A DNA stretch of 64,000 bases, from assembly GCA_963833985.1 (NCBI GenBank), contig CAWIAD010000001.1, forward strand, positions 800,001 to 864,000. Reading direction: 5' to 3'. Every line of letters starts with the position of its first letter. Positions within the stretch are counted from its first letter, which is position 1. Source of the stretch: an uncultured Planctomycetaceae bacterium (lineage in GTDB: Bacteria > Planctomycetota > Planctomycetia > Isosphaerales > Isosphaeraceae). The notes below the pieces were generated by a model. It ran no database searches and was not told the DNA's origin. It saw only the letters and a list, made by a program, of their open reading frames with translations. This document shows positions 33,601-58,636 of the stretch, in pieces. The translations under genes and the position numbers were made by a program.

Positions 33601-35585
33601 ATCCGCTCAACCACCTGACCTTCACCCAGGTCGGCACCTCGATGTCGTCGGCGATCGTGACCGGGGCCTACTCCATGGTCGCCTCGGCCCTGAACTACTG
33701 GATCAGCCTCAGCCAGGCCAACGGCGTTACCTCGGATGCTTATCTCACCACGCCGGTCGGCGTCGACTCCCTGAACTTCGGGGCGCACGCGATCAAGAAC
33801 TTGCAGGCCTTCAACACTCCCGACGGGATCAACGGCATCCTGGCCTACACGGCCGTGCCCGCGGCCGACGTCAACGATGGCGGCTCGATCTCCACTCCGC
33901 CGCTGGTTGCCACCACCGACCGGCAACACCACTTTATCGGCAGCACCTCGCCGCCCTCCTACGCCCGCGTCTCGATAGGTAATGCCATCGCCTCGGTCGA
34001 AGGCACGATCGCGATCAACTACCTGCTGGCGCACAATGACTTCCCGCTCATCGACACCAACGGCGACGGGATCATCACGGCGCAGGAAATCCAGAACTTC
34101 ACCGACACGGCTGCCACCAAGGGCCTGGCCGAGGCCGGTGCCATGGCAGCCCTGCTGGGCGGCACGTCCACCTACGCCCAACCCCAGCCGGGAATCAACA
34201 ACACCGTCTACAACGAGAACCCGGACCAGCCGTCGGCACTCCAGCGCCGGTTCAACTACTTCGACTACATCGCCAACGGCACGCTTCAGGGCGGCATCAG
34301 CATCAACTCCTTCAAGATGCTGGCCAACACCCTGCTGCCCCAGCCCGACTCGTATGTGATCGTGGACCGGCAGCGCGCCTCCGCCAACGGCTTCCTGGTG
34401 GCTCCGCTGGCCGTGCGCAACTTCGTGAATCTCCAGCATCTCCTGCCCAAGTACGAGTTCGTGCCGCCCTCGGCGATCATGAAGTACCGCAACGTCTCGC
34501 CCCTGCGGTTCGGGGTCGCGCTCAACCAGACACCCGGCTCTGCCCTGCCGTTCTACGCCTTGTTCGGTGGCGGTACCGGCCCTGCCTTGACGACAGGGAC
34601 ACCTGTGGTCCGCACCGGCGTCGTCAATGGACAGAGCTTCTCGGTGTCCATGGTCCCGATCGTGGCCGCGGCTTCGACCACCACGTCGACCGGTTCCACC
34701 ACCACATCGACAACGCCTGCAACCGGCACAACGGCCAGCACGACGGGAACCAGCGGGACATCGGTAGGGGCGATCGCCGCGCCCGGCAGCTCGGCCGTTG
34801 CCACCGGCAACGCAGCCACCGCCGGCTCAGGCAACGGCAATGGCAGCACGACCTCCACGGCGGGCGGATCCACCGTCGCCACCAGCAGCTCCACGGTGGC
34901 AACGGGCACGGCATCGACCCAAACGACGACAGGATCAACCTCCGGCGGCACGAACGCGAGCACGATCCAGGCCATTGTGGCCGCGGTCACTCAAGCGATC
35001 AACAATCCAGGCACGTCCTCGTCCAGCCCCAATAGCCTGATGCCAGCCGGGACCCTGACGCCCACAACGACTACCACCACCAGCACGTCGTCTTCGACGA
35101 CACCAGCAAGCTCCACGAACTCAAGCGGCACAACGGGAACGACGTCATCCAGCGCGAGCACCACCGCAGCGTCCGGATCGACAGCCTCGACCGCCGGGTC
35201 CGGATCGACCGCTTCGACCACCGGGTCGACAGGGACTGCGAGCTCGACACCCGCCTCCACGGCCCCGGCAGTGCCACTGGCCTATTCCTCGACCGCGGTG
35301 GCGAGCACGAGCGGCACGCCAAGTCCCGGTGTCAGCAGCAGTACTGGCGCGACGGGGACAACCGGTGGGACAAGCAACTCGAATGCCGCAAGCCCGCCCG
35401 TGCCCACCGTGACTCCCATGCTGGTGGCATCGACGGCACAAACGGCGGCGAGCAACCCGACCACGCCCCTCCAGGCGGCCGTTTCCAACCAGAAACAGGC
35501 CATCCGCCTGGCCGCGCTCCAGAGGGCGGCCAGGAAGAAGCCGGACTTCTGGAGCAGGCTCTGGAAGAACGTCAAGAAGATCTGA
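30654..35585 (+). CDS. Large secreted subtilase (S8)-like protein with EF-hand-like motif and Thr/Ser/Gly-rich tail
   Basis: Planctomycete export motif (LLEPRCLLA); triad VAVIDTG / HGTPVAG / GTSMSS; DTNGDGIITAQE; ~250-aa T/S-rich region; basic aromatic C-terminus. Confidence 0.82.
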   Translation: MSQPSRGRARGPAKRRRATKLETPTLLEPRCLLAPYVSVFPVTATFTAATAPTTNADLGTITVAQNTTATNIQTAAPITSVSELSPLSSFGGDIVRLKAGPGGVFGNGLYAISRGSGGNTSAVNRPGVIYRVDTATGKASVFFDLNTVLNQIDPNALATDGTNPAANSMGSSTGLVNWYDIAFDAEGNFNGSPVMFVSSVDRSDPSKNAIFMISPSGQFLGAFVMMTDGLAATKFNINPTAMTVPGPQDQAFLRGLLAGSGISTTGGTFAALYFNANAYSPGQVISNSTLPKGVSQTGLTAGTIVGLTTSNADYTSPVYSAFTDFGTPAAGGIPATPGDSGVQGSTTGQLLIGSGLPATTTSLTIDQTGQVSTQLRRLEDIAFDQYGYFSQSVGLTSTTTTSTTTGASTTAYTVTLPTISAGSVFVSDLASGISQSVTLTSVAEGDIPAGVAVTGTVPVDGPTIVGLQKQNPSAPYNAATNPLVIVYTLESVSPLLGGRVVRITPSGVMTNFAQGFDVSPATDATSFINSELSITFSADGTTLFASDGQGVWQFKTTASLAGSSTGTLIGLNDLRTLAVPYDGLGSAVAVIDTGVDGQSPPFRGRVTTGTNIWTGGPGNQDLAANASTTAGGAGGAGGAGGAGGAGGAGGAGQVLANTYDGHGTPVAGVVAQFVPQATIVPVTIFAPFVGTVTLTSGGGTTGGTGTTTGLSATSNALTTSQAVYQGLQYVANHPYVNDPVRTGKVSRVIATTLAFGTTSTFTSEYTAYKTYPQIVIALKNQLHRLRKLSIAPIAASGQFGAPLGASGTAGAGGTGTTGTATTTGGFNASNNASLGDVNGMSLPAVLNEVISVTGTYPFPFSTSPSTTPNDPVISVIPNLLGPLLVFGNALTLGGTAGTTGGAGGGGGAAGGGGGTTAGATGVSANVTTFTAADTLMYADRITSAANRSPTTDFAAPAIDVPTFRRTFSLTNTTTGTATSAAGDPLNHLTFTQVGTSMSSAIVTGAYSMVASALNYWISLSQANGVTSDAYLTTPVGVDSLNFGAHAIKNLQAFNTPDGINGILAYTAVPAADVNDGGSISTPPLVATTDRQHHFIGSTSPPSYARVSIGNAIASVEGTIAINYLLAHNDFPLIDTNGDGIITAQEIQNFTDTAATKGLAEAGAMAALLGGTSTYAQPQPGINNTVYNENPDQPSALQRRFNYFDYIANGTLQGGISINSFKMLANTLLPQPDSYVIVDRQRASANGFLVAPLAVRNFVNLQHLLPKYEFVPPSAIMKYRNVSPLRFGVALNQTPGSALPFYALFGGGTGPALTTGTPVVRTGVVNGQSFSVSMVPIVAAASTTTSTGSTTTSTTPATGTTASTTGTSGTSVGAIAAPGSSAVATGNAATAGSGNGNGSTTSTAGGSTVATSSSTVATGTASTQTTTGSTSGGTNASTIQAIVAAVTQAINNPGTSSSSPNSLMPAGTLTPTTTTTTSTSSSTTPASSTNSSGTTGTTSSSASTTAASGSTASTAGSGSTASTTGSTGTASSTPASTAPAVPLAYSSTAVASTSGTPSPGVSSSTGATGTTGGTSNSNAASPPVPTVTPMLVASTAQTAASNPTTPLQAAVSNQKQAIRLAALQRAARKKPDFWSRLWKNVKKI
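32541..32609. repeat. 9-bp coding tandem repeat (ggtggagcc-like) encoding (GGA)n
   Basis: gccggcggtgcgggcggagccggcggtgctggtggagccggtggagccggtggagccggtggcgca. Confidence 0.8.
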
Positions 35586-36293: not shown

Positions 36294-38477
36294 TCAGATG
36301 CTGAAGTTGAACGTCTTGTGGAAGAGCCGCCAGAGCCACCAGCCGAACGTGTGGACCCCGCCGTCGATCTTGGCAAAACCACGCAGCCCGGGCTGGAGCG
36401 TGAGCTTGGGGTTCTCCAGCGGGATGATCACCTCGTAAACCGCCGTCTGAGGCTTGACCGCACCCGTCTTCGGATCGGCCTTGCCGGCGATCTCGCCTCC
36501 GGCGACGTGGGAGAGCTCCGGAGGAATCTCGTCGCGACTGCGCTTGGCGACCTCTGAGACCTCACTCTTGTAGGTGGTTTCCGCGCGGCCGTAGACCTTG
36601 ACCCAGGCCCTGCATCCCGGCTGGATCAGGTCGACGTCGGATTGATCGATGATCAGGTGAGCCTCGATCTGGTGTGGATCTCCGACCTCGCAGAACGGCT
36701 TGCCCGGCTTGAGCACCTGGCCCACCGTCTCGGGGTGTGGGACGCCCATCACCTGCCCGTCATGCGCGGCCACCAGCGTGAGCTTGCCAATCTGCTCGTT
36801 GATCTTCTCGAGGACCGGCTCCAGCTCCTCGGCCGCCTGGAGATACTGCAAGGCCAGCGCGCGGCTCTCGCGTTCCGGGCTCCGGTTGTACCACTGCGAC
36901 TTCGCCCAGTTGATGTCGTGGTCCGCCGTCTTCTGCACCAGTTCCTTCTGCTTTTCAGGATTGATGAGCTTGGCGATGACCGTGTCTTTCTTGACCCACT
37001 CGCCGTCGCGGACGTTGAGCTCGACAAGCTGACCTTCCACCTCGGCGTAGACCTCGTCCGGCTTGGCCGCGGTGAGTACCAGCGTTCCCTGAACTCGCAA
37101 CGGAGTGGGGATCAGCAGAATGCCGGCCACGATGGCCACGGCCGCCACCGTGATGCTGGCCGCACGTACCTTTTTCACTTTGCGCAACCTCCCGGGGGTG
37201 CGAAGAAACTTGCCGATCTGGTAGACGGGCATTCCCAAGAGCGGCACCAGTGCGCCGCTCGCCAGCAAGTAGCTGATCGACTGCAACTTGTACGGTTTGA
37301 GCACCTGGCTCAAGAACCAGATGATGCTGAAGGTGACCACCCAGCGGTAGATGTAGCTGGCGATCGCGTAAGTGACGAAAAGTGACCGTCGCGACCGGGG
37401 CAGATAGCTCTGCACCGGGATCTCCAGCCCCAGCACCTTCTCCTGAACGAGGTAGGCGAAGAACTGCGTGCTCTTGATCCGCAGGTTGGGGATCTCCAGC
37501 CAGTCGGCCATCACGTAGTAGCCGTCGTAGCGGAGCAGGGGGTTGGCATTGAAGAGCACGGTATTGATCGAACAGATGAACATCGTGGCCATGGACAGGC
37601 TGTTCAGCAGTCCCGGCTCGCTGTAGAACCAGACGAAGGTGGCGATGCTGGCCAGGAACAGCTCGACGTAGATGCCCGCGGCCGAGATCCAGATGCGGTG
37701 CCACTTGTTGGGCAGGAGCCAGCTATCCGTCACGTCGCAGTAGAGTGCGGGCGTGAGGACCAGAAACAGCATCCCCATCTCGTGGACCTCGCCGCCGAAA
37801 TGCTTGGCAGTGAGGCCGTGGCCGAATTCGTGGATGATCTTCACGATCGCCAGGCTGATCCAGAAACTGAAGATCGTCCACCAGTTGAAGAAGCTCTGGA
37901 ACTCTGGCAGCTTGCTGTAGAACATGTCCCACTGGCTGATGACCAGGGTGACCGCCGCCAGCATCAAGCCCACGCTGGCCGTGACGAAGTAGGACGTGTA
38001 GATCCACCGGAAAGAGGGGTACATCCAGGTGAGCAGCCGCTCCGGGTCAATGATCGGGATCTTGATGAACAGGATGTTGGCCAGGAATGCCCACACCTTG
38101 CGCCAGCGGTTCTTGCGCCGGCGGCGGATGAGCACCTTGGCCTGCTCCTGGCTGTCAATCTGGATGATGCCCGCCTCGTGCAGTTGGGCGACGAAGCGGG
38201 TGAGGTCCTCGATGGAGATCGTCTGCGGCCGGTACTTGCGTTCGAAGACCTTCTTGACATCTTGAAGCGTCTGCTTGCCGTCGAACTGCTGGAGCAGGAA
38301 ATACTCCTCGATCTTGAACCGGAAGTACTTCAGAGCGAGGGGATCCTTGATCACATAATGCGTCATCCCCTCGTAGAACTGCGGTTGCACGACCAGGTCG
38401 GCGCGGAGCTTCACCTTCAGGTGTTCGGCGGCCTGGCCGAAGGGCGTCACGGGGGCCAGAGACGGAGCGGCGCTCAT
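36294..38477 (-). CDS. Site-2 (M50) metallopeptidase fused to an N-terminal PqqD/RRE-like domain and a C-terminal HlyD-like adaptor
   Basis: HEFGH and NANPLLRYDGY Zn motifs, multiple TM helices, lipoyl-like VRDGEWVKKD, LQPGLRGFAKI. N-terminus resembles a winged helix (FDGKQTLQDV...FVAQLHEAGII). Confidence 0.88.
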   Translation of the reverse strand: MSAAPSLAPVTPFGQAAEHLKVKLRADLVVQPQFYEGMTHYVIKDPLALKYFRFKIEEYFLLQQFDGKQTLQDVKKVFERKYRPQTISIEDLTRFVAQLHEAGIIQIDSQEQAKVLIRRRRKNRWRKVWAFLANILFIKIPIIDPERLLTWMYPSFRWIYTSYFVTASVGLMLAAVTLVISQWDMFYSKLPEFQSFFNWWTIFSFWISLAIVKIIHEFGHGLTAKHFGGEVHEMGMLFLVLTPALYCDVTDSWLLPNKWHRIWISAAGIYVELFLASIATFVWFYSEPGLLNSLSMATMFICSINTVLFNANPLLRYDGYYVMADWLEIPNLRIKSTQFFAYLVQEKVLGLEIPVQSYLPRSRRSLFVTYAIASYIYRWVVTFSIIWFLSQVLKPYKLQSISYLLASGALVPLLGMPVYQIGKFLRTPGRLRKVKKVRAASITVAAVAIVAGILLIPTPLRVQGTLVLTAAKPDEVYAEVEGQLVELNVRDGEWVKKDTVIAKLINPEKQKELVQKTADHDINWAKSQWYNRSPERESRALALQYLQAAEELEPVLEKINEQIGKLTLVAAHDGQVMGVPHPETVGQVLKPGKPFCEVGDPHQIEAHLIIDQSDVDLIQPGCRAWVKVYGRAETTYKSEVSEVAKRSRDEIPPELSHVAGGEIAGKADPKTGAVKPQTAVYEVIIPLENPKLTLQPGLRGFAKIDGGVHTFGWWLWRLFHKTFNFSI

Positions 38478-38556
38478 CGGTCGGCAGTCCTCGGGGAGGT
38501 TCGGGTACCTTCGCCTGTCAGTCCATCAATCGTCAGTCACGCCCGCCCGGCCCGAT

Positions 38557-39501
38557 CTAGCGTGCCGGCTGGGGAATCCGCGCGGCCACATCGTCATTCA
38601 GGTAGATGGTCATTCTGGCCGTGAGCCCCGGAACCAGCTTGTAGTCGGGGTTCTCGAACTCGGCCCGGATCCGCCGCTCCGGCCGGACATTCACCTGGAT
38701 CTGCGGATCGACGAAGGTGATCTTGCCGCGGAAGATCATCTTCTCGACCTCTTCCTTGCCGCTGCCGCCGGCCGTCTCCAGCCGCGGCTGGAGCTCGACG
38801 ATCTGCCCCTCCTTGACCTTGAACGCGTGCCTGAGCGGGACATAGGCATTGGCGCAGAGCCGGGACAGTTTGCCGATCTGGACCACGGCCTCATTGGCGC
38901 GCACGCTTTCTCCCGGATGCTTGAAGACGTTGATGACGATGCCGTCGAAAGGAGCCAGGATCGTGTGCTCGGCGAGAAGCTGCTTGGCGATGGCCAGTTC
39001 GGCCATGGCCACCTTCTGATTCTCGCGCGCCTCCTTGATCTGGGCGTCGGCGACCTTCAGCTCGCCCTCCGCCTTGGCCATCTCTTCCTTCGACACCATG
39101 CCGGGCTTGCGCTCGTTGAGCCGATGGTTGATGGCCACGGTGGCCAGGGCCACGTCGAAGGCGGCCTTGCCCTTCTCGATGGCACCCACGCTGTCGGCCT
39201 GGGCCTGGGCCTTGGCCACCGCCAGCTCGGCCGAGATGTGGTGCAGGTAGCCGATCGGCTTGCCCGCGAGCGCGGGGTCGCCCAGCCGCAGCTCCATCTT
39301 GTCGATCACGCCCTCGCGCAGGGCGGCGACCTTGGACTGCTCGATCCAGTCCACGGTGGCCAGATCGTCGAGCACCAGCGTGTTGGCCGTGCTGGAGCGA
39401 ACCGGCTGGTCCTGCCCCGTACCGTTCTGGGCGAGCAGCCCCATAAACAGCGTTGAGAGCAGTCCCACGCCCAGGGCTGCGGCAGTCTTCGCGGCGTACA
39501 T
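38557..39501 (-). CDS. HlyD/RND periplasmic adaptor (membrane fusion protein)
   Basis: Signal/TM segment, coiled hairpin, ILAPFDGIV, PGESV, GKITFVDPQI, LVPGLTARMTI. GGAGG RBS. Confidence 0.9.
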   Translation of the reverse strand: MYAAKTAAALGVGLLSTLFMGLLAQNGTGQDQPVRSSTANTLVLDDLATVDWIEQSKVAALREGVIDKMELRLGDPALAGKPIGYLHHISAELAVAKAQAQADSVGAIEKGKAAFDVALATVAINHRLNERKPGMVSKEEMAKAEGELKVADAQIKEARENQKVAMAELAIAKQLLAEHTILAPFDGIVINVFKHPGESVRANEAVVQIGKLSRLCANAYVPLRHAFKVKEGQIVELQPRLETAGGSGKEEVEKMIFRGKITFVDPQIQVNVRPERRIRAEFENPDYKLVPGLTARMTIYLNDDVAARIPQPAR

Positions 39502-39661
39502 CTTCAGCAAGCCTCCACCTTCAAGGATCGATCTGGTTTGTTTCCAATGATTCCGGTCGCCTGTCGAAGGACTCGTCCCTCGCTCCACGCGATCCGCCGG
39601 CTGGGGGCAGGGGGCTCCCTCCCCCTCTTTTTTCCAGTGCCGCGCGGGGCCAGCCGCGGGC

Positions 39662-41764
39662 TCAGTGGAGGAACGGCCAGCGGAACATCACCGACTCGTA
39701 CCAGACCTGGACGACCTTGCGGAGCAGGTAGTACGACAGGCGGGTCTTGCCGCAGTCAACCCGCGCCCGCACCTCGGCGCCGGGATGCAGTTCCTGGTGG
39801 CGGGTGAAGACTTCCTTGCGAACGGCCTCGTCGAAACCCACGGTCACCTTGACCACGTGCTTCTGCTCCACCGTCTCGGCCTTGGCGGCGATCCTGCGCA
39901 CGTAGCCCTCGTACTTGTGCTCGGGATCGGTCGCCAGCACGAAATAGGCCTTCAGCGCCGCGCCCGGCTGCTTGGTGCCGGCGGCAATCTCCGCTTGCAG
40001 CTTGCTCTGAGCATCCAGGATCGGGCTCATGTCGTCGTCGGGAACGTCCACCTCGAGCACCCAGTCGGAGTCGCCGCCGATGGCCGCGATGTTGAGCAGC
40101 TCATGGCCGATCTCGACGGGTCGTCCCATGAGGTTCTTCTTGACTTCCCAGGTCGTGATGATGCCGTCCTGTGGTGCCTTGATGGTCATCATGTCGATCT
40201 GCTCCTCGACGATCTCGATCTGCTCCTTGGCGCTCTTGAACGTGAGCGCGGCCTCGACGAGCTGCGACTTGACCTGATACTGCATGTCCTGATCGGCCTG
40301 GGAATCCGACGATTTCAGTTTCTGGTTCTCGGCGATCAGCTTCTGGCTCCAGGCCTTGTCGCGCTCGCCGATCAGCTTCTTCAGCTCCTTCTGGAGCTCC
40401 TTGCTGTCAAGCCGGGCGATCACGTCCCCCTTCTTGACGATCTCGCCATGCTCGACGGGGACCTCGATGATCGTACCGGCAATCGGAGCGTACAGCGTCC
40501 GCCGCTCCTCGGGCAGGAGCGATCCGCGGCCCTCGATCGTGAGCGTGCAGGGAACAAACCACATGGCGGCGACCAGCACGACGATCGCGACCAGCACGGC
40601 CGCGATCTTGGCCAGCGTCCGGCCGCGGAGTAACCGCCAGGGCGACCCCATGAACTTGAGCAGGGGCTTCAGGAAGATCTTGTGATGTTCCTGCGAGTTC
40701 CAGAGCGCCGTCGATGCGTGCCGCGAAACCACCTCCGTGCGGGCGTGCATATCCGTGGGCGCCACCTCGTCGCCGATCTGCTCGGCGACCAGGCAGCCGT
40801 AGGGGACCTTTTCCCGGCTTTCTTTCTCATCGCTTCCCTGTTGCTCCTCCTCGGGCTTGTGCAGGAGCGTGACCACCACCACCTTCGAGCCCGATTCGTC
40901 GACATAAAGCTCCAGGGCATCGCGGATATCCGGCGCGAAGCCTTCGGTATTGCCGGTGTACACCAGGTCCTCGCCGGACCGGATCACCACCTTGCAGAGC
41001 CGGGTCAGGTCGCGCACCAGGTTGGACCGCTGTTCGACCACCTCCTGGCCGCTCACCGCCTCGACCAGGGTCCGGCCGGAGAGCTTCAGCGCCACGCTCA
41101 GCCGGTCGCAGCCCACCAGCCGCTTGCCGTCGTTGACCACGGAATAGGCGGTCTCTTTCAGGTCCAGCGAGCCGTGGATGTGGTGCGTGAAACCCTTGAG
41201 CTGGTTCCAGAGCCGTTGCTGCGACATCATCTGCCGCATCTGCCGGTTCTTGAGATAATTGCTGGCCAGGTCGCAGAGGTCGCCCACGAACCGCAAGGTG
41301 CTCTTCTGCTGGGCCGCCCGGCGGTTGGGATCCATCAACAGCTCGAGCAGTCCGACGACCTGCTTGTCCACGATCAGCGGAGCGATGATGAGCGCCTGGG
41401 GTGTCGGGTTATAGGCCTGCGGTACCCCCTCGATCACCGCTCCCGGAGGGATGATCTGCGCCTGCGAGGCCTGGATCATGCAGCCCAGAAGCGCGTCGTG
41501 GGGCGGCGTCTTGACCCGGCCGTCCATGAGTCCGGTCTGCGCGAACTCCACCTGGTATTGAAGTCGCAACCCATTCCGGCCGTCCATCAGCCAGAAGGCG
41601 CCGCCGGACGCCGCAACCGCGGCCACCGACCGGTTCAGAAACTCAACGTAAAACTCGGCAGGCTGAACGTCCGATTCCGCCAGATCGGCAATCTCGGCCA
41701 CCAGCTTGCGAATCTGGTTCTTCGTCTGCTCAAGCAGACCAGCATCAATGGTTTCTTCCGGCAT
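39662..41764 (-). CDS. GAF-domain-containing HlyD-family adaptor protein
   Basis: Two GAF-like segments (APLIVDKQVVGLLEL; SLDLKETAYSVVNDGKRLVGCDRLSVA), a TM helix, then APIAGTI..VEHGEIVKKGD, IKAPQDG, LHPGAEVRARV. Confidence 0.88.
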   Translation of the reverse strand: MPEETIDAGLLEQTKNQIRKLVAEIADLAESDVQPAEFYVEFLNRSVAAVAASGGAFWLMDGRNGLRLQYQVEFAQTGLMDGRVKTPPHDALLGCMIQASQAQIIPPGAVIEGVPQAYNPTPQALIIAPLIVDKQVVGLLELLMDPNRRAAQQKSTLRFVGDLCDLASNYLKNRQMRQMMSQQRLWNQLKGFTHHIHGSLDLKETAYSVVNDGKRLVGCDRLSVALKLSGRTLVEAVSGQEVVEQRSNLVRDLTRLCKVVIRSGEDLVYTGNTEGFAPDIRDALELYVDESGSKVVVVTLLHKPEEEQQGSDEKESREKVPYGCLVAEQIGDEVAPTDMHARTEVVSRHASTALWNSQEHHKIFLKPLLKFMGSPWRLLRGRTLAKIAAVLVAIVVLVAAMWFVPCTLTIEGRGSLLPEERRTLYAPIAGTIIEVPVEHGEIVKKGDVIARLDSKELQKELKKLIGERDKAWSQKLIAENQKLKSSDSQADQDMQYQVKSQLVEAALTFKSAKEQIEIVEEQIDMMTIKAPQDGIITTWEVKKNLMGRPVEIGHELLNIAAIGGDSDWVLEVDVPDDDMSPILDAQSKLQAEIAAGTKQPGAALKAYFVLATDPEHKYEGYVRRIAAKAETVEQKHVVKVTVGFDEAVRKEVFTRHQELHPGAEVRARVDCGKTRLSYYLLRKVVQVWYESVMFRWPFLH

Positions 41765-42425: not shown

Positions 42426-42800
42426 TCACGCACGAGGTGGCTGCGAGTCCTCCTTGGCGGTCCCTCGGGTTGCGTCAGGATAGCGGCTTTCCAGGTCGTT
42501 CAGATAGCGGTTGATCTGGTAGAGGCTCTGCTTGTGAATTTGAGGAAAGCGCCTCTCAAACCAGTTCTCCACCTTGCCGAAGGCCTTCGGCCAGAGCACC
42601 AGGCCACCCGCGATGGCCGCCGGCGTGCCGACCACGCCAGGCAAGATGAAGCCCAGCACGCCCACGGTCATGAGCATCACGCCCACTTCCCTGGGTAAAT
42701 CCTTGATGCGACCGAGTTCCGCTTCTTCTTCCAGCGTGAGCTGCGGCCCCGCCTCGGCGTGCGAGGCGGAATCGGCCACAGGCGGAACCGGCTCGCCCAT
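42426..42800 (-). CDS. Hypothetical membrane protein with a Gly-rich hairpin
   Basis: VGVMLMTVGVLGFILPGVVGTPAAIAGGLVLWP followed by an amphipathic helix. Last gene of the ATPase run; true start may lie slightly upstream. Confidence 0.75.
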   Translation of the reverse strand: MGEPVPPVADSASHAEAGPQLTLEEEAELGRIKDLPREVGVMLMTVGVLGFILPGVVGTPAAIAGGLVLWPKAFGKVENWFERRFPQIHKQSLYQINRYLNDLESRYPDATRGTAKEDSQPPRA

Positions 42801-42921: not shown

Positions 42922-45419
42922 TCAGCCGGCGATGCGCGACTCCCGCCGCCTCGAGACCCGGGTGAGCTGCTTTTCGAGGCCCCTGACGGCGGCCGAGGTT
43001 CGTGCGTAGGTGCTATAGGTTCCGAGGTTGGTGATCACCACACTGGTGAGCGAGGAGAAGCCCATGAAAAACGCGCCGGCCACGCAGACGAGGTTGGGAA
43101 TCCAGGCCGAGCCCTGTGCCGCCAGCACGCGCCGGCGATGAATTTGCGAGACCTCGTCGAGCGTGCCGAGTCTGGACAGGTCGGGCTGGAGCAGCACGAT
43201 CCCCGCCGGGTTCCGTTCCAGGTTCTCCAGACCGGCTGGATCAATCGAGATCGCCACGTCGGCGGCACGGGCAGCCGGGCCGCGGCGCAGACATTCCCCC
43301 ACGTAAGCGACCTTGAGCCCACGGCGCTGACAGCCGCGGAAGAGCTGGACCAGATCCGGGGTTGCCAGGCTGCCGTGCTGGAAGTCCACACCCAGGCCGG
43401 CCGCGAGCTGTCGGAAGCGGGGCCCGTCCTGCTCGGAGACGAGACCGATGGCCAGGGGATGCCGCAGCTTCCCGCGGATTTCGCTGAGTGCGGTGGCGGC
43501 CGCCAGGCGCGGCGAGCGGCGGAAGTCGATCAGTCCCGCGATCTGTCCGTTGATGCCGACCATCAAGGAATCCAGCGGCCGGTCCTCGACCCGCCCGCGG
43601 GCCTCCGCGGCCTGCCCCGGGGCCGGTCCCTGGCCCCCCAGGTTGCCAACCTTGATCACCTGTTCGTTGTGCACGAGCGTCACGTCCGTGCCGTAGGTGG
43701 TCGGAATTCGGTCCAGCAGGGTGATCCGCCGGGCGCGGCAGGCCGCGTGCAGCGCTGCGGCCCGTTCGTCGTCCAGCTCGCGCAGGGCCGAGGCCGCGTA
43801 CCGCAGCACCTGGAACTCGGTCTGACCAGGGAAGACGCGCACCGACGAGACTTCGGGCTCGAAGATCTCGAGCGCGGCGTGGTGATCCAGGAACAGCACG
43901 TCGACCTTGGCCAGCCGACCGATGGCCTCCGGATCGCGGACCACGATTCCGTGCTGGAAGCAGAGCGAGAGCGCCTGGAGATTTTCCAGGGGGTAGGCCA
44001 GGCCGGGGCCAGACGCGTAGTCGGTATCAAGGATCGCCAGTGCCATCGGAGCACCGCCCAGGGTCAGTCCCAGGCCGGCGGCCGCCAACGTTGGCACCAC
44101 TGTCGGCGTGGCGAACTGCTCGCCCTTGACGGTCGGGGTGCGCAATCCCGGCGGGTGGTTCGCCGCGACGAGTGCGGTCCGCGCCAGCTGCGCGGCCCGA
44201 CTCTTCGCGCCCAGCCAGGCAGTCTCCACCTCGAAATCACCGCTGAGCACGATCGAGCCGGCGTAGACGGCCTCGTCGGGTCCCTTGCGGGTCATTCCCC
44301 GCGCGCCCCGGACCACGCGCTCGTCGAGGAGCCCGTACCCCTTGATGATCCGCCCGTCGACACAGACCTTCTCGCCGGCCGAAACCCGGATCACGTCGCC
44401 GGCAACGAGCCGCTCCGCGGGGACCTCGACCTCAACCCCTCCGGCAGCCTCGACCCGGGCATAGCGCTGGTGCTGCGTGACCTCGCCCAGGAGCCTCCTG
44501 CGGGCGCTGGCAAGCTGTTGCTGGTACTGCCGCTTCCACAGCCGCAGCATCCAGCTCATCGTCGCCCAGGGGAGAAACGTACCGGTCGCCAGGGTGCCCG
44601 CGGCGATGCTCGAGTAGATCACCGGCAGGCCAAGCTGGCCGCGGCCAACCTGGTTGGCCGCGATCCGGAAGACCCGCAGGTTCGCCCCGACCACCAGCGC
44701 CGCGGCCGCGGGCCAGACGGCCGGGACGAAGAAATCGCTGACGATGGACACGGCCACGGCCGTGTTCACCAGGCCAAACCGCACCGGTGAGCCCTCACCG
44801 CCGGGGCCGAGCTCGACCGGCAGCGACTCGGGCGCGGCCTCGAGGGCGCGCAACAGGCGGTCGGGCGCGTCTGCGACGGGTCGAAGCGGATCCGCAGCGT
44901 CCCGGAGAACGGACGCAGCACGCTGCTCTTGACCCCGTGTACCGATTCCAGTTGATGAGCGATCCGCTGCCCCAGAGCGGCGTCGGCCGTGACGGTCTCG
45001 TGCCGCAGGCAGAGGACACCAGGCTGCTCGCCGACGATCTCCCAGGTCGAGAGCATTCCGCGGTTGCGGTGGATTTTCAGCCTGGGCCTGCTGAGGTCGG
45101 AGGCCAGGAGCACCACGGCCTGACGGCCCGGCGCCGGCTCGGCGTTTCCCCGCAGCGCGAGGGCCAGGTGCTGGAGCAGATCCGCACGCTGCCGCCCCCC
45201 CTCGAAATGGATCAGTGCCGTCGCACAGGAACGGTCGATGTCGACGGTGTGCACCTCCTCCACGGAGAAGGCGCGCACCAGAAAGCGGCCGCACAGCTCG
45301 GCTCCTGCCGTGGAGATGCCGAACATCTCCTCGTCGCGCAGCCGGAGAGTCTGCGGGCCCCAGCTCACATGCACCGGGGAGGGTTTCAAGGCGGATCCGG
45401 AAGTCTTCACGTCCAACAC
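42922..45419 (-). CDS. Degenerate P1B-type ATPase paralogue (catalytic motifs lost), frameshift near 44870
   Basis: Collinear with 46564..49212: two N-terminal HMA-like domains (ORF 44766..45419), actuator LVAGDVIRVSAGEKVCVDG; TGES->RGAR, DKTGT->DHHAA, GDGIND->GECLRR. Confidence 0.8.
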
Positions 45420-45443: not shown

Positions 45444-45653
45444 TCATCGGCCCTGGCCCGTAGCCAGAAATGGCTTCAGCTCGCCGCTTTCGACCCACTG
45501 TTCCAGGACGGTGGCGATCTGGCTCTCCTCGCGGTCGAACACGTTGAAGATGGACCTGAGCTTGTGCCGCTGGCGATTCACCTCCAGCCCGAAATAGCAG
45601 AGGATCAGCGAGGCCACGAGAATCGGCAGAATGGGAATACCTTCTTCATTCAC
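45444..45653 (-). CDS. Small single-TM hypothetical protein
   Basis: GAGGT RBS, TM ILPILVASLILCYFGL, tight operon spacing. Confidence 0.7.
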   Translation of the reverse strand: MNEEGIPILPILVASLILCYFGLEVNRQRHKLRSIFNVFDREESQIATVLEQWVESGELKPFLATGQGR

Positions 45654-45687: not shown

Positions 45688-46219
45688 TCAGAGTAATTCC
45701 AGCGATGCTTCGGACGCCTCCCGGAGCAATTTCACCATGTTTCCCAGCCCTTCCCGGTGCAGCTCACGCTCGACCTCGCACGACAGGCATTCCGCCGTCC
45801 GGTGCGTGGCCACGAACTTGAGGAACTCCTGCAACTTCACCAGGGCCTGCTCGGGATTCTTGATGATGCCCAGGTTCAGGCGGAAGCCGTGATAGTTGGC
45901 CTTCTCCCTGGGCGGCTTGCTGAGGGGGCGGTAGATATCATAGACGAGGATCATGGGATCGCGGCCGATGTGCTCGGGCGCGCTTCAGCACGTTGATCGA
46001 CTGCTCCCGGCTGAGGATGTAAACCGGGTCCTGGGGATGATAATGGTGGAACAGGGGCATGTGTTCATGAAGCACCTTCGAGACCGGCCCGTTCCAACCC
46101 GTATCCACCAGGAAGATATGAAACCGCGGCGATTCCGGGGTGAGCGGCTCCTCGCGGCTCCTGGGACGGAGCTTGAACCGTGACTCCTTCGTCGACTCAT
46201 TACCCGATCGCTCAGTCAT
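45688..46219 (-). CDS. Hypothetical soluble protein (~177 aa), frameshift near 45980
   Basis: ORF 45938..46219 (FHIFLVDTGWN..VSKVLHE) joins ORF 45688..45954 (DPMILVYD...YHGFRLNLG...HREGL) in the operon. Confidence 0.7.
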
Positions 46220-46277: not shown

Positions 46278-46589
46278 TCACAGGTTCAGGTCGTTGGCGA
46301 TACTGTCAATGAACTGCACGGCCACCTTGCGGTTCTCGTTCGTGGCCAGCACCTTGGCGGCCAGGGAGAGCTCGGCGTCTACCCGCATCGTCTCCTTGGT
46401 GAACTGGACGATGAACGACAGCCATCTCGTCTTGATTGTCATCTCGGGCTTGGCCGGGTTTTCCAGCAGCTCGGACGGGACCGGAATCTCGTGCTTGCGG
46501 CGCTGGTACTCGGAGCGTATGGCCTCCATGGTGGGACTGTCCACGGGGCGCTTGAGCGGCCGCTCATACAGCTTTTCTCGCCAGGCCAT
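46278..46589 (-). CDS. Hypothetical protein (103 aa)
   Basis: Overlaps the ATPase stop by 26 nt, GAGG RBS, GC3-rich codon usage. Confidence 0.72.
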   Translation of the reverse strand: MAWREKLYERPLKRPVDSPTMEAIRSEYQRRKHEIPVPSELLENPAKPEMTIKTRWLSFIVQFTKETMRVDAELSLAAKVLATNENRKVAVQFIDSIANDLNL

Positions 46590-49212
46590 AAGCTTGCCTC
46601 ATCTCCTGTTCGTGCTTCTTCTCCGCCTCGATCTGGGCAATCTTCCGGAGCGGCATCATGCCGTTGGCCAGGGCGCCAATCGCCGAGACGTTGTTGGTGA
46701 TCACCGAGGCCATGATCCCGAAACCCATTGTAAAGACGCCCGCGATGCAGGCAATGTTCGGTATCAGGATCATGGTCCAGCTGCGCTTCACGTTGTGGTC
46801 AAGGTCCTTCGCGATGTCACGCAAATCGCAGAGCTTGGACAGGCCCTGCTCCATGAACACGATATGGGCCGTGTCCGTCGCGATCGAGGAGGCCCCGCGC
46901 AGCGAGATCGACACGTTCGCCTTCTTGAGGGCGATGGAATCGTTGATCCCGTCGCCCACGAAGCAGACCTTCTTGCCCTCTTTCTGCAATTTCGCCACGT
47001 AGTCGGCCTTGTCCGCCGGCAGAACCTGGGCGAAGTACCGGTCCATCCCCAGCGTCTCGGCCAGCTTGCGCATGGGCGCCTCGTGGTCGCCGGAAATGAT
47101 TGCCAGGTGCTTGATGCCCCGCGCCCTCAGCCCAGCGACGATGTCGCGAACTTCCGGCCGGACCGCCGCGTGCAGCTCGATCGCCCCGCCGACCTCGCCG
47201 TCCACGCCCACCAGCACCATCGTGTGGCCCTCACCGTGCGCCTCCTCCAGCGCCTGGCGAATCTCGGTGCACATCGGCAGACCTTCCAGCTCCATGAACC
47301 GCTTGCTACCGACGCGAATCATCCGTCCATGAACGTGCACGGTGATCCCGTAGCCAACCTTGTACTGCGTGTCGTCGGTGGGAGGAAGCTCGAAACCCAG
47401 ATCCTTGGCTTTCTGAAGGATGGCCAGGGCGATGGGATGGTGGAACTTCTTCTCGGCCGCGGCCGCGTACAGCAGGATCTCGTCGGCAGTCTGCCCCGGG
47501 GCGGCGATCACGCGGCCGACCTCGGGACGTTCCCGCGTGAGCGTGCCCGTCTTGTCGAAGAGGACCGTATCCACCTCGTTCATCAGTTCCAGGGCCCGGC
47601 CGTCCTTCACCAGTATTCCCTTGGTGGCGCACAGGGCCAGCGAGCTGAGCATCGCCAGCGGGGCGGCCATGCGGATGCCGGTCCCGAAATCGCTGTTCAG
47701 TACGGCCACTGCGCCGAAGGGGCCCATCGTGGCCATGCCCACCGCGCCGATGGTCAACGTCGGGATCACCGCCTTGTCGGCGAGGATCTCCCCCTTATGC
47801 TGCGAGCTGAGCTTGTAGCCGGCCGTGTCATTGAGAATCTGGCTGATCTTGGCCGACGCCGTCTCGCTGCCGGATTTCTCCACGGACACGAGAATCTTGC
47901 CAGCCACCAGCAGCGTCGACGCGAACACCCGGTCGCCCACGCCCTTCTCGGCCGGCGTCGATTCGCCGGTCAGTGCGTGCTGGTCGATCATCGCCAGCCC
48001 CTCGGCGATGATGCCGTCCACCGCGACCACCTCGCCGGTGTTCACCACGATGATGTCTCCGGCCGCCAACCGGTCCAGCGACACCTGCACCTCGACGCCG
48101 TCGCGATAGAGCCAGACGAACCGCGGCTGCTTGCCGAACGCATTCAGGAGCAGCTTCTTGGAGTTATCCTGCGTCTTCTTCACCAGCACCCGGCCGAAGC
48201 TCAGGCACCAGCAGAGCACGGCACCCGGGAAGATGGACAGCGTGGCCAGGCAGCCAACGACCACGATGGCATCGAGCACGTCCACGCCCAGCCGCTTGTC
48301 GACGGTGAGCACCTCGCGGGCGTTCTTGAACGTGGGGATGGACGTGTAGGCGAAGAGTCCGGCAGCCACCGGCAAGAGCCCTGGCGCGGCGAACTGGGCC
48401 ACGGCGGCCACCGGAATCGAGATCGTGCAGAGCGGCAGATGCAGGTCAGGACGGTCCTTGTGGGCAGGATGCTCGGCCGCGGCGAGGGCGGCCTCGATGA
48501 TCTCGATGATCTGGTCCCGCGTCAGCTCCTTGATGTCATATTGCACCAGCACCGTGGAGGTGAGCGGATTGGTCTTGTAGGAATCAATCCCCAGCACGCT
48601 CATGAGCTCGCGCTCGATGGCCTGGCAGAGATCGGACTTGCGGTGGATCAGCGGGTTCTTGATGCGGAGCCGGCCGGGGATGTCCTGCTTGATTTCCCAG
48701 TTCGTGATCGACGAGCCATAGCGGAAGAAGCGGATCTGGCCCTGCTCGTTGCGGATCGGCGTGACCCGGCTGATCGCCACGCCGTGCGGCGCTCCGTTCG
48801 GGGACGCGGGGGGGGTTCCCGGTCGAGACGGCAGGGCAGCCTCCGGTTCGGTCCGGCTCTCGTTCGGTGCCGTGGCCGCATGTTGTTCCGGGGTGGAAAC
48901 CGCCGTTGCATCCGCAACCGTGTGGACAACCTGGCCGGCCCCCTGCGGTTCACGGGCCCGGTCCGGGTCCAGGCAGGTGGTGATCCGCTGTACGACGTCG
49001 TCCAGTGTGAAGGATCGGGGACAGAAGCGCAGCTCCGCGTGGGGCATCTCCCCGTTCTTGCGATGTGAATTGATCGTGACGTCGGTGATCTCCGGCGCCT
49101 GGAAGACGCGCTCCAGGAACTGCCGGCAGGTCTCGTTGCCCGGCTCGGCGAAGAGGTGCCGGCTCTCGAGGCGAATCTGACCCTGGCCGGGGAAGCTGAT
49201 CGCGATGTCCAT
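46564..49212 (-). CDS. Heavy-metal P1B-type ATPase without CPC motif (P1B-6/FezB/CtpC-like)
   Basis: LTGES, DKTGTLT, HP (HHPIA), SGD, GDGINDS all intact. TM motif NSDFGTGIRMAAP replaces CPC. N-terminal HMA-like domains include IPGRLRI. Confidence 0.92.
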   Translation of the reverse strand: MDIAISFPGQGQIRLESRHLFAEPGNETCRQFLERVFQAPEITDVTINSHRKNGEMPHAELRFCPRSFTLDDVVQRITTCLDPDRAREPQGAGQVVHTVADATAVSTPEQHAATAPNESRTEPEAALPSRPGTPPASPNGAPHGVAISRVTPIRNEQGQIRFFRYGSSITNWEIKQDIPGRLRIKNPLIHRKSDLCQAIERELMSVLGIDSYKTNPLTSTVLVQYDIKELTRDQIIEIIEAALAAAEHPAHKDRPDLHLPLCTISIPVAAVAQFAAPGLLPVAAGLFAYTSIPTFKNAREVLTVDKRLGVDVLDAIVVVGCLATLSIFPGAVLCWCLSFGRVLVKKTQDNSKKLLLNAFGKQPRFVWLYRDGVEVQVSLDRLAAGDIIVVNTGEVVAVDGIIAEGLAMIDQHALTGESTPAEKGVGDRVFASTLLVAGKILVSVEKSGSETASAKISQILNDTAGYKLSSQHKGEILADKAVIPTLTIGAVGMATMGPFGAVAVLNSDFGTGIRMAAPLAMLSSLALCATKGILVKDGRALELMNEVDTVLFDKTGTLTRERPEVGRVIAAPGQTADEILLYAAAAEKKFHHPIALAILQKAKDLGFELPPTDDTQYKVGYGITVHVHGRMIRVGSKRFMELEGLPMCTEIRQALEEAHGEGHTMVLVGVDGEVGGAIELHAAVRPEVRDIVAGLRARGIKHLAIISGDHEAPMRKLAETLGMDRYFAQVLPADKADYVAKLQKEGKKVCFVGDGINDSIALKKANVSISLRGASSIATDTAHIVFMEQGLSKLCDLRDIAKDLDHNVKRSWTMILIPNIACIAGVFTMGFGIMASVITNNVSAIGALANGMMPLRKIAQIEAEKKHEQEMRQAYGLARKAV

Positions 49213-49454: not shown

Positions 49455-49733
49455 CTAGGTCGCGGTCGTGGCCTCGGCAGTACCGCTGGGCGTTGTGGCC
49501 CCGGCGCCGGATTGTTTCATCTCCGCCATCGCGTCCTGAACGGCTTCCACCTTCTCCGCCACCTTTTTCGCCATCTCGGAGTACGATTCGCCGAACGCCG
49601 CGCCGGCCCCGGCGAGCGCCCCGGAGAGCAGGGGCGCGAATTTTTCCTTCATGGCCGGGTAATTCGCACCCGCCACGGCACCGATGACGAGGCCGGCGGT
49701 GAAGAACATGGCTTCAGATCGAGTCATGGGCAT
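49455..49733 (-). CDS. Small GxxxG membrane/coiled-coil protein (DUF5132/FezA-like architecture)
   Basis: FFTAGLVIGAVAGA and SGALAGAGAAFG glycine zippers followed by the helix EMAKKVAEKVEAVQDAMAEMK. Confidence 0.7.
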   Translation of the reverse strand: MPMTRSEAMFFTAGLVIGAVAGANYPAMKEKFAPLLSGALAGAGAAFGESYSEMAKKVAEKVEAVQDAMAEMKQSGAGATTPSGTAEATTAT

Positions 49734-49851
49734 CAGGGTCTGACTCCGGCGCGTGAGATCCAATCGGTTTTCAGGTGAGCGCGTCTCTCAACAGTATCCG
49801 AGATCAGGCGCGACTCGTCGAGAGAATCGCCAACCGGGTATGGCTCGCCGC

Positions 49852-50214
49852 TCACGACTGGGCAATGGCCGGCGTTGCTTCGGCGGAGCCGCCTTCAAGC
49901 TTTCGTTTCTTCATCTCGTCCACCATGTCCACAGCGGCATTGGCCCCGTCAATCAGCCCGTGGACAATCGGATTGTTCTTGGGCACGGACCGAGCCACCA
50001 GTATGGACGGGAAGACCACTCCGTAGGAAATCGTATAGCACGTCGTGTATACGAACCGCGAAACGAACTGGTTCACCGCCGGCAAGGCCTGGTCCACTCT
50101 CTGCCGGGCGTCGGCTGCCCCATCCCTGGCCGCCTGCACGGCCTGCTCCATGGCATCGGCCACCGTTTTCAGTGGGTCGCTCGCATGGGTCCCCACCGTG
50201 GAATTGTCACTCAT
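49852..50214 (-). CDS. Hypothetical protein, 'ISYGVVFP' family paralogue 1
   Basis: YTTCYTISYGVVFPSILVARSVPKNNPIVHGLIDGANAA. First gene of the ATPase run. Confidence 0.82.
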   Translation of the reverse strand: MSDNSTVGTHASDPLKTVADAMEQAVQAARDGAADARQRVDQALPAVNQFVSRFVYTTCYTISYGVVFPSILVARSVPKNNPIVHGLIDGANAAVDMVDEMKKRKLEGGSAEATPAIAQS

Positions 50215-50689: not shown

Positions 50690-51358
50690 TCAATGCCCCG
50701 TCTGGGACATGGGTGCATCGAGCGGCTTGGACTGGGGCGACCCATCCTGCCTCAAGAAGATAGATAGCACAACCATCGCCCCCAGCGCCAGGAACTCGCT
50801 CTGGTAGTTCTGCAACGACTGGAACCAGAAGGTTGAAGTCGTGAGGAAGCCCACGAACGAAACGGCCGCCTCGCCGTGCTGGACCTGCTCGACGTTGTAC
50901 TCGAGCCGGCCCCCGACCGCATGGGCGAGGAACGACATGATGAAGAGTGCGAAGAAGGCGATGGACAGAGAGTGCGCATAGACCGCCCGCACCCAACCCC
51001 CTTGGCGGGCCGGCCAGGGCGCATCGGGTCCGCTCGACCGTGCCTGCCCCCCACTGCCCGAGGAACCATCAAGCTTCTTGGAAACGGCCGAACCCTTCTG
51101 AAACAGGAATGCGGCGAACAGGACATTGCAGCCCATCTGCAAGAACTCGCTCTCCCAGTTCTCGAAAATGGCTTCGATGTTCTGGCCGCAAACGAGGTAA
51201 TCCAGGTAACTCAGAGGCGAGAGCCCAAGCTGTGTGCGCTGCTGGTTGTAGGTGGCCTGCCCCACGATCGTCTGACCGACCAGAAAAACCGCGAAGAGTG
51301 CAAACAGAGTGATCGACAGGCCATTCTCCCGGAGAATTCGCATCATGAGACTGCTCAC
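50690..51358 (-). CDS. DUF6766-family membrane protein
   Basis: ENGLSI, FENWESEFLQ, QKGS..SK, YAHSLS, FWFQSLQNYQSEFL, LRQDGSPQSKP. Confidence 0.85.
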   Translation of the reverse strand: MSSLMMRILRENGLSITLFALFAVFLVGQTIVGQATYNQQRTQLGLSPLSYLDYLVCGQNIEAIFENWESEFLQMGCNVLFAAFLFQKGSAVSKKLDGSSGSGGQARSSGPDAPWPARQGGWVRAVYAHSLSIAFFALFIMSFLAHAVGGRLEYNVEQVQHGEAAVSFVGFLTTSTFWFQSLQNYQSEFLALGAMVVLSIFLRQDGSPQSKPLDAPMSQTGH

Positions 51359-52647: not shown

Positions 52648-53087
52648 ATGGCAGAACATGCCACGACAGATTCGCCCTCGGTTGCTGATGGCGCGCGCAG
52701 TGGTGGAGAAGCCGTCGTGAGTGACGCCCTGGCGTCGGCCCGCGAGGGGCTCTCCGGGATGATCCCCCAGCGCCAGGGCGTTCTTGGACGCACGGTCTAT
52801 TCCACGTCGTATGCGATTTCCTACGGCGTCGTCTTTCCCACCATGCTCGTGGCCCGCGCGCTACCCAGGGACAATGCACTCTTCCACGGCCTGGCCGACG
52901 GGGCAGAAGCTGCGCGCGAACGGGTTTTCGGCTGGGAAGACAGCCAGGAGCACGAAGAGACGGCCGGCTCGGAGGAGGCCGGGCAGAGCGAGGGAGACTC
53001 CGATGGCGAGGGACAAGAAGCCACTCGCGGATCCTCACGGAACCGCCGTCGCGGCCGTCAGCGCGGGGGCGCAAATCCTCCCGGTGA
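52648..53087 (+). CDS. Hypothetical protein, 'ISYGVVFP' family paralogue 2 with acidic then Arg-rich tail
   Basis: YSTSYAISYGVVFPTMLVARALPRDNALFHGLADGAEAA. The ORF reads to 53250 but a G-run indel near 53066 probably puts the stop at 53087. Confidence 0.75.
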
Positions 53088-53144
53088 GCCGGCTGCTCGC
53101 GTGGCCGCTCGCCCGGTATCCCGCGGTCGACAGGGCTCGACGCA

Positions 53145-53924
53145 TCATGCGGAATTGATCCGCAGCGGGTTCGAGGTGCCGTCGAGCACGAGCGTACCTC
53201 TGAAAATGATGGAGACGTTGCCCCTCCCCCACCCGCTGGCATGGAGATAGCCGCCATTGCCCGGGTGATAGATGAGCTGGATGGTCCCCGAGCCGGAAGC
53301 GTTGGCGAAGGCTCCCGAGCTGGCCGAGGTGACGATCCAGTTCAGCGTTGTGGGCCGCCCGTTGGGCGGCTGGCTGGGGTCTCCGGAGATCTGGACGATG
53401 ATGAAGCTTCCGGTCATGAGAAAGCTCTTGGGGTAAAGCGTGGCAGAGCCACTGGGGCCCTGCGATGCCGAGGACGGGGTCTGGAACCCTAGCTGGATGT
53501 TGCCGTGCAGAAATGCGGTCGAATTGCCGCCGGCATTCGCATATGTTTGCGAGATGTCGCCGGTGAACCGCGGCGGACCTATGATGTACGGCCCGTAGAA
53601 GACCGCGACGAAGTTCTCGCGCAACTGCTCGTGGGGCGTCGGCGCTCCTGAAACCTGCGAGACGGTCGAGGAGTTGCTGGACACGGCCCCCTGGAGGTTC
53701 AGTTGTGTCGAGCCCAGGGAGAACGCGGGACTCTGGCTTGAGCCCGTGCTCGCGTTGGCGGAGGGAGTTGCACTGGTCTGCGCCTGGACGACGGCGCTGT
53801 GCCTGCGTGTGTGAGCGGGCGCCGGGCGTGCCAGACCGTGGAGCGACGATGGCAACTCGCGCTGTTCCAGGAGCTCGATGAGCGGGCCGATCGGCTGACC
53901 GGGACCTGTTCTCTTTCGTTTCAT
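53145..53924 (-). CDS. Secreted beta-rich hypothetical protein with planctomycete export motif
   Basis: MKRKR...LIELLEQRELPS leader; TSASSGAFANASGSGTI. Confidence 0.75.
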   Translation of the reverse strand: MKRKRTGPGQPIGPLIELLEQRELPSSLHGLARPAPAHTRRHSAVVQAQTSATPSANASTGSSQSPAFSLGSTQLNLQGAVSSNSSTVSQVSGAPTPHEQLRENFVAVFYGPYIIGPPRFTGDISQTYANAGGNSTAFLHGNIQLGFQTPSSASQGPSGSATLYPKSFLMTGSFIIVQISGDPSQPPNGRPTTLNWIVTSASSGAFANASGSGTIQLIYHPGNGGYLHASGWGRGNVSIIFRGTLVLDGTSNPLRINSA

Positions 53925-58350: not shown

Positions 58351-58636
58351 GGAGGACCTCCTGGTCGTCATTCTTTCCCGGAACAACACGCTCAGAGCAA
58401 TATCTTACCTATTTTGCCTCATGACCGCAAAGACACCACAGGATCGATTATGGTGAGGCGGTGGGCTCAGACCCAGCACGGCGTGGTTTATCCGGCAAAA
58501 TCCATACGTTTGGCTTCGCAGCCTTGTCTGACCGTAGTGGCGGCCTGATCATGATAGTAAGGGGACGCGCTTCGACGGCTCCATTGTGACCTTCCCGGTC
58601 AGGCTCCCCGAGACCCCTGGATTGCAGGAGCTCCAC

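Follow-up and report, generated by a model that had tools for sequence, protein, structure and literature searches.

A maintained P1B-ATPase paralogue without catalytic motifs, encoded beside an atypical P1B pump

Described systems and the pump operon

P-type ATPases are textbook single-chain pumps, and to our knowledge their accessory subunits (KdpA/C, CDC50 and beta subunits) are proteins unrelated to the pumps themselves. The described systems closest to the locus reported here are ferrosomes, PacL-Ctp effluxosomes and calcyanin gene neighbourhoods. In the ferrosome passages, D[Y/F]SCA together with HNxxT defines the pump FezB (10.1101/2020.01.10.902569). The PacL-Ctp passages provide a precedent for P-ATPase assemblies that are scaffolded by small membrane proteins, and in that system the HMA domains bind the scaffold (PMC13460109). 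Calcyanin (ccyA) is a marker of intracellular CaCO3, and the passages on its surroundings place cax, CoBaHMA-DUF454, DUF5132, carbonic anhydrase and cation-transporting ATPase genes around it, with no dead ATPase named there (PMC8890360, 10.1101/2024.07.07.602159).

Within the passages covered, the nearest printed case of a dead ATPase twin is the degenerate N-terminal region of CtpH/CtpI, in which a degenerate P-type ATPase region is likewise retained with an active one (PMC13460109). That region is fused to a P2-type pump and described from AlphaFold models only, whereas the dead ATPase reported here is a separate gene accompanying a P1B pump, the two cases being likened by description. Our literature search found no account of the dead family, nor of any dead P-type ATPase that has its own gene and accompanies its pump; these proteins could figure in the CoBaHMA survey.

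The window, which is the whole analysed stretch of 64,000 nucleotides from an uncultured Planctomycetaceae bacterium, contains an operon on the minus strand in which a pump gene and the dead gene are accompanied by six small genes, in an order that is constant between loci: c120, c91, pump, c103, c177, c68, dead gene, c124. The pump (46564..49212) is a P1B-6-related protein of 882 amino acids with intact TGES, DKTGT, HP and GDGIND motifs, so the dead gene is indeed paired with an active-type P1B ATPase, as a preliminary description of this DNA had proposed. The pump scores 393 bits against TIGR01525 (cut-off 346), and its arginine-rich N-terminus, which includes PGRLRIK, matches HMA_2 (PF19991, 43 bits against a cut-off of 30). 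Its membrane motifs are DVLD, NSDFGTGIR, PNxxC and NNxxA. The pump is atypical in carrying DFGTG without CPC or SCA, and it is 30% identical to a DYSCA pump. TM4 reads DFGTG, DLGTG or DYGTG in 44/44 pumps of this family, and the Asn-Asn of the TM6 motif NNxxA is present in all 44; none of them has the D[Y/F]SCA and HNxxT motifs of P1B-6/FezB.

Because Cys and His are gone and the site is instead rich in Asp and Asn, the transported ion would be a hard cation. This ligand set and the gene context make Ca2+ or Mn2+ a more likely substrate than Fe2+; what counts against this is that iron, rather than calcium, is loaded by the pump's FezB-like relatives. A Ca2+/H+ exchanger gene (CAX, PF01699; 56780..57910, minus strand) is a recurrent operon link. 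It occurs within 10 kb in 21/76 loci (kin that are not independent) and in 16 of the 43 loci that have 3 kb on both sides, and each genome has only one to three CAX matches. No FeoA or FeoB homologue was found in the 76 loci, and no iron gene (FeoA, FeoB, ferritin-like or Fur) was found among the 56 of 225 neighbour cluster representatives that were scanned.

The c120 gene (49852..50214, 44/73 loci) encodes a 120-residue protein with no curated family above cut-off, and further copies lie at about 52650-53190 (plus strand) and 58015-58389 (minus strand). The c91 gene (49455..49763, 27/73 loci) encodes a small membrane protein with a helical tail, a layout like that of FezA and PacL, and GxxxG occurs in the first 45 residues of 17/17 c91 proteins. 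It is weakly DUF5132-like, with HMM E-values of 2.5e-5 and 1.6e-4 against two annotated DUF5132 proteins and an hhalign probability of 66%. The 103-residue protein of c103 (46278..46589) is fused to the C-terminus of the pump in loci L036, L037, L056, L057 and L064. The c177 gene (45688..46219, 38/73 loci), whose 177-residue product matches only unnamed Atlas clusters and nothing in Pfam or PDB, is frameshifted in the window near 45975. The c68 gene (45444..45653, 42/73 loci) encodes a 69-residue membrane protein with a single helix, and c124 (42426..42800, 58/73 loci) a 124-residue membrane protein that is weakly DUF454-like (E 0.004 in a homologue).

Several other genes are linked less regularly. 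An HMA-DUF454 fusion of the CoBaHMA type is linked in 15/73 loci, EcsC in 13 loci, DUF1345 in 4, and carbonic anhydrase and TerC in 3 each. In the window, the TerC-family membrane protein (PF03741; 51410..52327, minus strand; 3/76 loci) is such an occasional link. Between it and c120 lies a DUF6766 membrane protein (50690-51358), which is found in 0/76 related loci. The window's genome (G000) also holds scattered relatives of the operon: an EcsC-c120 fusion (C2:2222870-2224033), an HMA-DUF454 protein (C2:3437275-3438531) and a c124 copy adjoining a TerC gene (C2:2683942-2685231). A tandem family of proteins of about 550 residues with long Gly-Met repeats occurs in the same genome at C1:1058841-1064564 and C2:5113019-5115061.

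Downstream of the operon are three HlyD-like genes (36294-41764), one fused to a GAF domain and one with a peptidase M50 domain. They were rejected as members of the system, as HlyD-type genes co-occur in only 1-2/76 loci. They adjoin a gene for a 1643-residue protein rich in Thr, Gly and Ser (30654-35585), in which subtilase-like motifs can be seen by eye, and with it they probably form a secretion locus with no link to the pump operon.

The operon resembles the ferrosome cluster, as the passages on it describe that cluster (10.1101/2020.01.10.902569), in having an R-rich HMA-like N-terminus without CxxC, M1 'VLDA', the TM4 Asp, small GxxxG membrane proteins, HMA-membrane fusion proteins and two P1B genes per cluster. 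It differs from the ferrosome in its pump, where DFGTG and NNxxA stand instead of D[YF]SCA and HNxxT, and in that no homologue of FeoB, FeoA or a small gene of cluster L114 was found in the 76 loci. L114 (L114:5073-15490, genome G201, Planctomycetota) is a ferrosome-type cluster with FeoB, an HMA_2 protein, GxxxG proteins, a DYSCA pump, a FeoA-domain protein and a CPC pump. The second ATPase of this cluster is a candidate FezH with CPC and an intact DKTGT and falls outside the dead clade, in contrast to the dead twin described here. Identity of the operon proteins with FezB/FezH or with PacL was rejected on motifs and families.

In the passages on the PacL-Ctp effluxosome, P1B-6-like pumps are co-encoded with single-helix scaffold proteins, and several P-ATPases share a membrane assembly (PMC13460109, 10.1101/2021.10.01.462712). 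All the effluxosome pumps described there are active, whereas the twin here is dead (PMC13460109), and the small proteins of the operon match no DUF1490 or DUF6110 model, their likeness being one of layout alone (a GxxxG helix and an acidic or Ala-rich tail). The loci share with calcyanin neighbourhoods, as far as these are described in the passages covered, the frequent cax and HMA_2-DUF454 genes, the weakly DUF5132-like protein and, in 3 loci, carbonic anhydrase. A simple glycine-zipper pattern found no calcyanin-type glycine-zipper protein in the loci or in the window's genome.

The dead gene and its maintenance

The dead gene extends on the minus strand from a GTG at 45419 to a stop at 42922, in two frames that total 832 codons when read through. 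Its N-terminal part (44865..45419, 185 codons) begins with the GTG, which has GGAG 6 nucleotides upstream, and encodes two HMA-like domains without CxxC. The C-terminal part (42922..44865, 647 codons) encodes the membrane helices and the A, P and N domains, with the motifs RGAR, DYASG, DHHAA, DDERA, GECLRR, PNLVC and TNLGT. Scans for promoters and terminators gave no signal above that of shuffled sequences.

The preliminary description held that this gene keeps the architecture of its neighbour while the catalytic motifs are replaced, and both statements are borne out. The C-terminal part is 27% identical to the neighbouring pump over 623 residues (E 2e-64), and the N-terminal part weakly matches both N-terminal HMA-like domains of the pump; its HMA_2 match (E 0.005) is below cut-off. 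A structure model of an orthologue (P0002, pLDDT 84) has a P1B ATPase fold with the same order of elements as the pump model, and its top 12 Foldseek matches are all P1B structures. TIGR01525 is the best family for the dead protein, with 125 bits against a cut-off of 346. TGES is replaced by RGAR (44310-44299), DFGTG by DYASG (44022-44008), DKTGT by DHHAA (43887-43873), in which the phosphorylated Asp is still there, and GDGIND by GECLRR (43299-43282). The HP motif of the N domain is also gone (DDERA). The dead gene is confirmed as a P1B-ATPase paralogue that lacks the TGE, DKTGT, HP and GDGxND motifs.

The two frames are joined by a one-base shortfall at 44863..44867, inside GCGCCC. This break is likely an assembly error, because four close orthologues (L021, L023, L005 and L006) are in frame at the site, c177 in the same operon breaks in a comparable GC run, and 11/38 matched loci of the two-contig assembly are frameshifted (not all of them independent, as a few queries are antisense shadow ORFs). 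The unbroken L021 orthologue has the same length as the read-through copy. That this strain alone has recently acquired a genuine break is decidedly unlikely. The earlier observation of no internal stops and one indel of a kind seen elsewhere in the window agrees with this single one-base break in an assembly where indels are common.

Nei-Gojobori dN/dS values for the dead gene range from 0.105 to 0.414 (49 pairs above the identity cut, which are not independent of one another). The four least saturated pairs give 0.20-0.26, comparisons with the window copy 0.16-0.31, and the N-terminal part against L021 gives 0.25. It might still be supposed that the whole family is a decaying pseudogene, or that the window copy is broken by a real frameshift: the gene has one frameshift here, it evolves 2.9 times faster than the pump (37 pairs), and a few broken copies occur in other metagenome-assembled genomes. 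Decay is scarcely credible, given dN/dS far below 1 on either side of the break, many unbroken orthologues that include those of isolate genomes, and the frequency of frameshifted loci in this assembly. The preliminary description had taken the gene to be a maintained pseudoenzyme and not a decaying pseudogene, and had proposed that orthologues be checked for a common loss of DKTGT and TGES and for dN/dS below 1. Both turned out so, in an intact orthologue family that is co-inherited with the pump, and the dead gene is almost certainly a maintained pseudoenzyme.

Losses and conservation across the family

Relatives were collected by a word-indexed search (95 proteins) and a profile search (the best 150 representatives), and 238 proteins were gathered, 10 of which carry DKTGT. 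Motifs were compared between 169 full-length sequences without DKTGT, less than 90% identical to one another, and 44 with it; two rows were left out, a frameshift chimaera and a decayed copy of the pump that had been misfiled. The division into dead and active sequences was set by DKTGT, and the other motifs are independent of it. TGE is present in 2/169 dead proteins, the N-domain Glu in 1, HP in 1, SGD in 2 and the ND of GDGxND in none, whereas each of these is present in 44/44 pumps. At the DKTGT positions the dead proteins keep the Asp in 110/169, the Lys in 1 and the Thr in 4.

Retention of the phosphorylated Asp counts against a wholly non-catalytic protein. Perhaps a slow phosphatase or ATPase activity of a non-canonical kind persists through this Asp in the HAD-type P domain, and the GD of GDGxND, which is partly kept, and the Lys735 equivalent, which is present in 50/169, are consistent with such activity. 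However, the Asp is replaced in 59/169, the Thr two positions beyond it, SGD and ND are essentially absent, and the N domain is deleted in 20 of the 176 relatives that span the membrane core. Residual catalysis is therefore very unlikely.

Conservation is highest in the membrane. Mean values for the dead family are 0.52-0.66 in membrane segments, 0.37 in the N domain and 0.45 in the C-terminal part of the P domain, and residues peculiar to the family occur in M1-M3, including a Trp in M2 (98%), an Ala/Gly motif in M3 and a Pro and a Gly in M1. Both HMA-like domains are missing in 14/176 relatives; some of these may be cut gene calls, but the loss is real in Aquisphaera insulae, and the domains are missing in Aquisphaera isolates. 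No relative (0/176) has CxxC within its first 210 residues. The N-domain deletions, the absence of HMA domains and the lack of CxxC imply that ATP binding and cytosolic metal sensing are dispensable, and the membrane is most likely the seat of the protein's job. The preliminary description had offered the roles of heterodimer partner, scaffold and metal sensor; a partner or scaffold would fit best, whereas sensing through the HMA domains fits poorly with these absences.

The membrane residues that are kept suggest another possibility, in which the dead protein alone is a passive ion carrier, a leak or release channel or a membrane ion sensor, with the pump filling a compartment that the twin empties or senses. 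The TM4 Asp (168/169), TM5 Asn (168), TM5 Cys (155) and second TM6 Asn (165) are 92-99% conserved, orphan copies of the gene exist, and most of the sampled cyanobacterial dead genes are not beside a pump. Nonetheless, the M1 Asp pair (kept in 2/169), the TM4 Arg (11), the first TM6 Asn (2) and the TM4 Asn are lost, the kept residues may be structural, and the HMA domains have no CxxC. We consider a stand-alone carrier or sensor unlikely, if still a serious candidate.

Pairing with the pump

In a phylogenetic tree the dead proteins form one clade with a support of 100 that includes 72/73 rows, the remaining row being the misfiled decayed pump copy. Its sister group is the DFGTG pumps, the DYSCA and CPC pumps branch outside both, and the DYSCA pump of the FeoB-containing cluster L114 is the nearest outgroup. 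The dead gene is present in 73 of the 76 loci gathered, 57 of which have enough upstream DNA to judge, and 55 of these have a paralogue of the DFGTG family immediately upstream, in the same orientation. Among the 55 paralogues, 51 have DKTGT, two are cut by contig ends and two are degenerate. The two orphan dead genes are in Methylococcaceae genomes that hold the operon with another dead copy elsewhere. For 37 pump/dead pairs the two gene trees share 28/34 splits with no strong split in conflict; operon linkage alone produces matching trees, so this congruence is not proof of contact.

The dead gene is found in Isosphaerales, Pirellulales, Planctomycetales, Alphaproteobacteria, Methylococcaceae and one verrucomicrobium; relatives are named as Isosphaeraceae. 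A search of 74 Isosphaeraceae genomes gave no match in 31, and the remaining 43 include 41 with at least two matches. Elsewhere in the phylum, a search of 300 Planctomycetota genomes, with 3 candidates scored in each, did not find the dead gene, the sole match being a DYSCA pump. Cultured carriers of the pump family are Aquisphaera and, by name, Paludisphaera.

Pumps also occur without the twin. Locus L089 has the pump and three small genes without a dead gene, and no dead gene was found in genome G043, which has the pump. The window's genome has a second, stand-alone pump copy with DLGTG, which is frameshifted (C2:1088960-1091445), and none of the six annotated genes upstream of a Methylobacterium plasmid pump is an operon gene. 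At L078:3883-5577 and L085:5772-7805 the upstream pump copy has degenerated too: it reads DFRTG, lacks DKTGT and has lost the N domain. Two dead genes thus stand side by side there, and each of the two genomes has a pump with DKTGT at another site.

Nearly all of the ATP-using residues are lost, yet the gene is kept beside the pump by selection, so the product is likely a non-pumping membrane partner. We lean slightly towards the reading that the dead protein is a non-catalytic membrane subunit of, or scaffold for, the adjacent DFGTG pump. It would neither hydrolyse ATP nor cycle, and it would contact the pump through its membrane helices, where its own conserved residues sit, perhaps to stabilise, cluster or tune the pump. 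By analogy with effluxosomes and ferrosomes, the twin may assemble with the pump and with the operon's small GxxxG proteins, in a system whose cargo is probably a hard divalent cation (Ca2+ or Mn2+). Co-inheritance is insufficient to establish contact, and pumps without a twin, orphan twins and degenerate upstream copies count against a subunit. A complex prediction with pump residues 255-868 and two pieces of the dead protein scored 0.00 against a mark of 0.32, with no controls folded, and speaks neither for nor against contact.

Alternatively, the dead protein might be a negative regulator or decoy that damps pumping, either by binding to the pump or by sequestering the small scaffold proteins. 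Its pump-like architecture, co-transcribed layout and dispensability in some lineages would suit an inhibitor. However, a fixed operon offers no obvious on/off switch, and the HMA domains, which are the scaffold binders in PacL-Ctp, are missing in Aquisphaera. This role is quite unlikely.

Cyanobacterial dead copies and a possible link to calcium

On cyanobacterial plasmids, DFGTG pumps are accompanied by cax, DUF5132, DUF1345 and a gene for Mn efflux, and two types of dead copy are found in these bacteria. Type 1 is a 522-residue protein without A and N domains that keeps the HMA, membrane and P core and is conserved in Microcystis, Gloeothece and Chroococcopsis; it has 21 homologues, one of which represents a Microcystis cluster with 341 members. 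An example on a Gloeothece verrucosa plasmid (L124:12822-14390; type-1 proteins P0359-P0379) is annotated only as 'HMA2 domain protein'. Type 2 is a 663-residue Nostoc protein without an N domain, in which the membrane and P core is likewise preserved. In the tree the cyanobacterial dead copies group with cyanobacterial pumps, and a single origin with the planctomycete dead clade is rejected (p-AU 3e-5), whereas one origin for both cyanobacterial types is not (p-AU 0.08). Dead copies of the DFGTG pump family arose independently in cyanobacteria. In 15/16 cyanobacterial metagenome loci, several of which are short contigs, no active pump is beside the A-less/N-less dead gene, which counts against a strict partnership. 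At one of these loci the dead gene follows genes for an HMA-glycine-zipper protein and a DUF5132-like protein.

The pairing of pump and dead twin, its breadth and its repeated origin are newly seen here; the analysis also defines an uncharacterised pump family with cultured carriers. A separately encoded dead paralogue that is conserved alongside its pump in three phyla, and that has arisen again in cyanobacteria, would be a new way to build or regulate a pump. The gene context links clusters of the ferrosome and calcyanin types, and in cyanobacteria DFGTG pumps and dead copies occur with cax, DUF5132, DUF1345, DUF1269 and HMA-glycine-zipper proteins. It is conceivable, though as a whole this proposal is speculative and rather unlikely, that the DFGTG pumps, as an undescribed P1B family, transport Ca2+ in the form of a hetero-oligomer of pump and dead twin, a design that would have evolved at least twice, and that this complex, together with the GxxxG proteins and cax, forms a membrane compartment for calcium storage, equivalent for calcium to the ferrosome. 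Planctomycetes would do so without calcyanin, and in cyanobacteria the complex would supply the missing Ca2+-loading step of intracellular CaCO3 formation. The gene context provides a concrete candidate for how Ca2+ is loaded into bacterial mineral compartments.

Two cyanobacterial arrangements are of separate interest. At L141:6701-9464, an HMA-glycine-zipper (calcyanin-like) protein, a DUF5132-like protein and a dead ATPase are encoded in one row. On a Nostoc flagelliforme plasmid (L126:11632-13623 and 17690-18898; L125), an N-less dead ATPase occurs with an HMA protein that has two glycine-zipper-like stretches. The same cluster includes two cax genes, DUF454, DUF5132, DUF1345, a Mn efflux gene and two P1B pumps, one of which has DFSHS and GEGIND, and it is a candidate Ca or Mn biomineral island.
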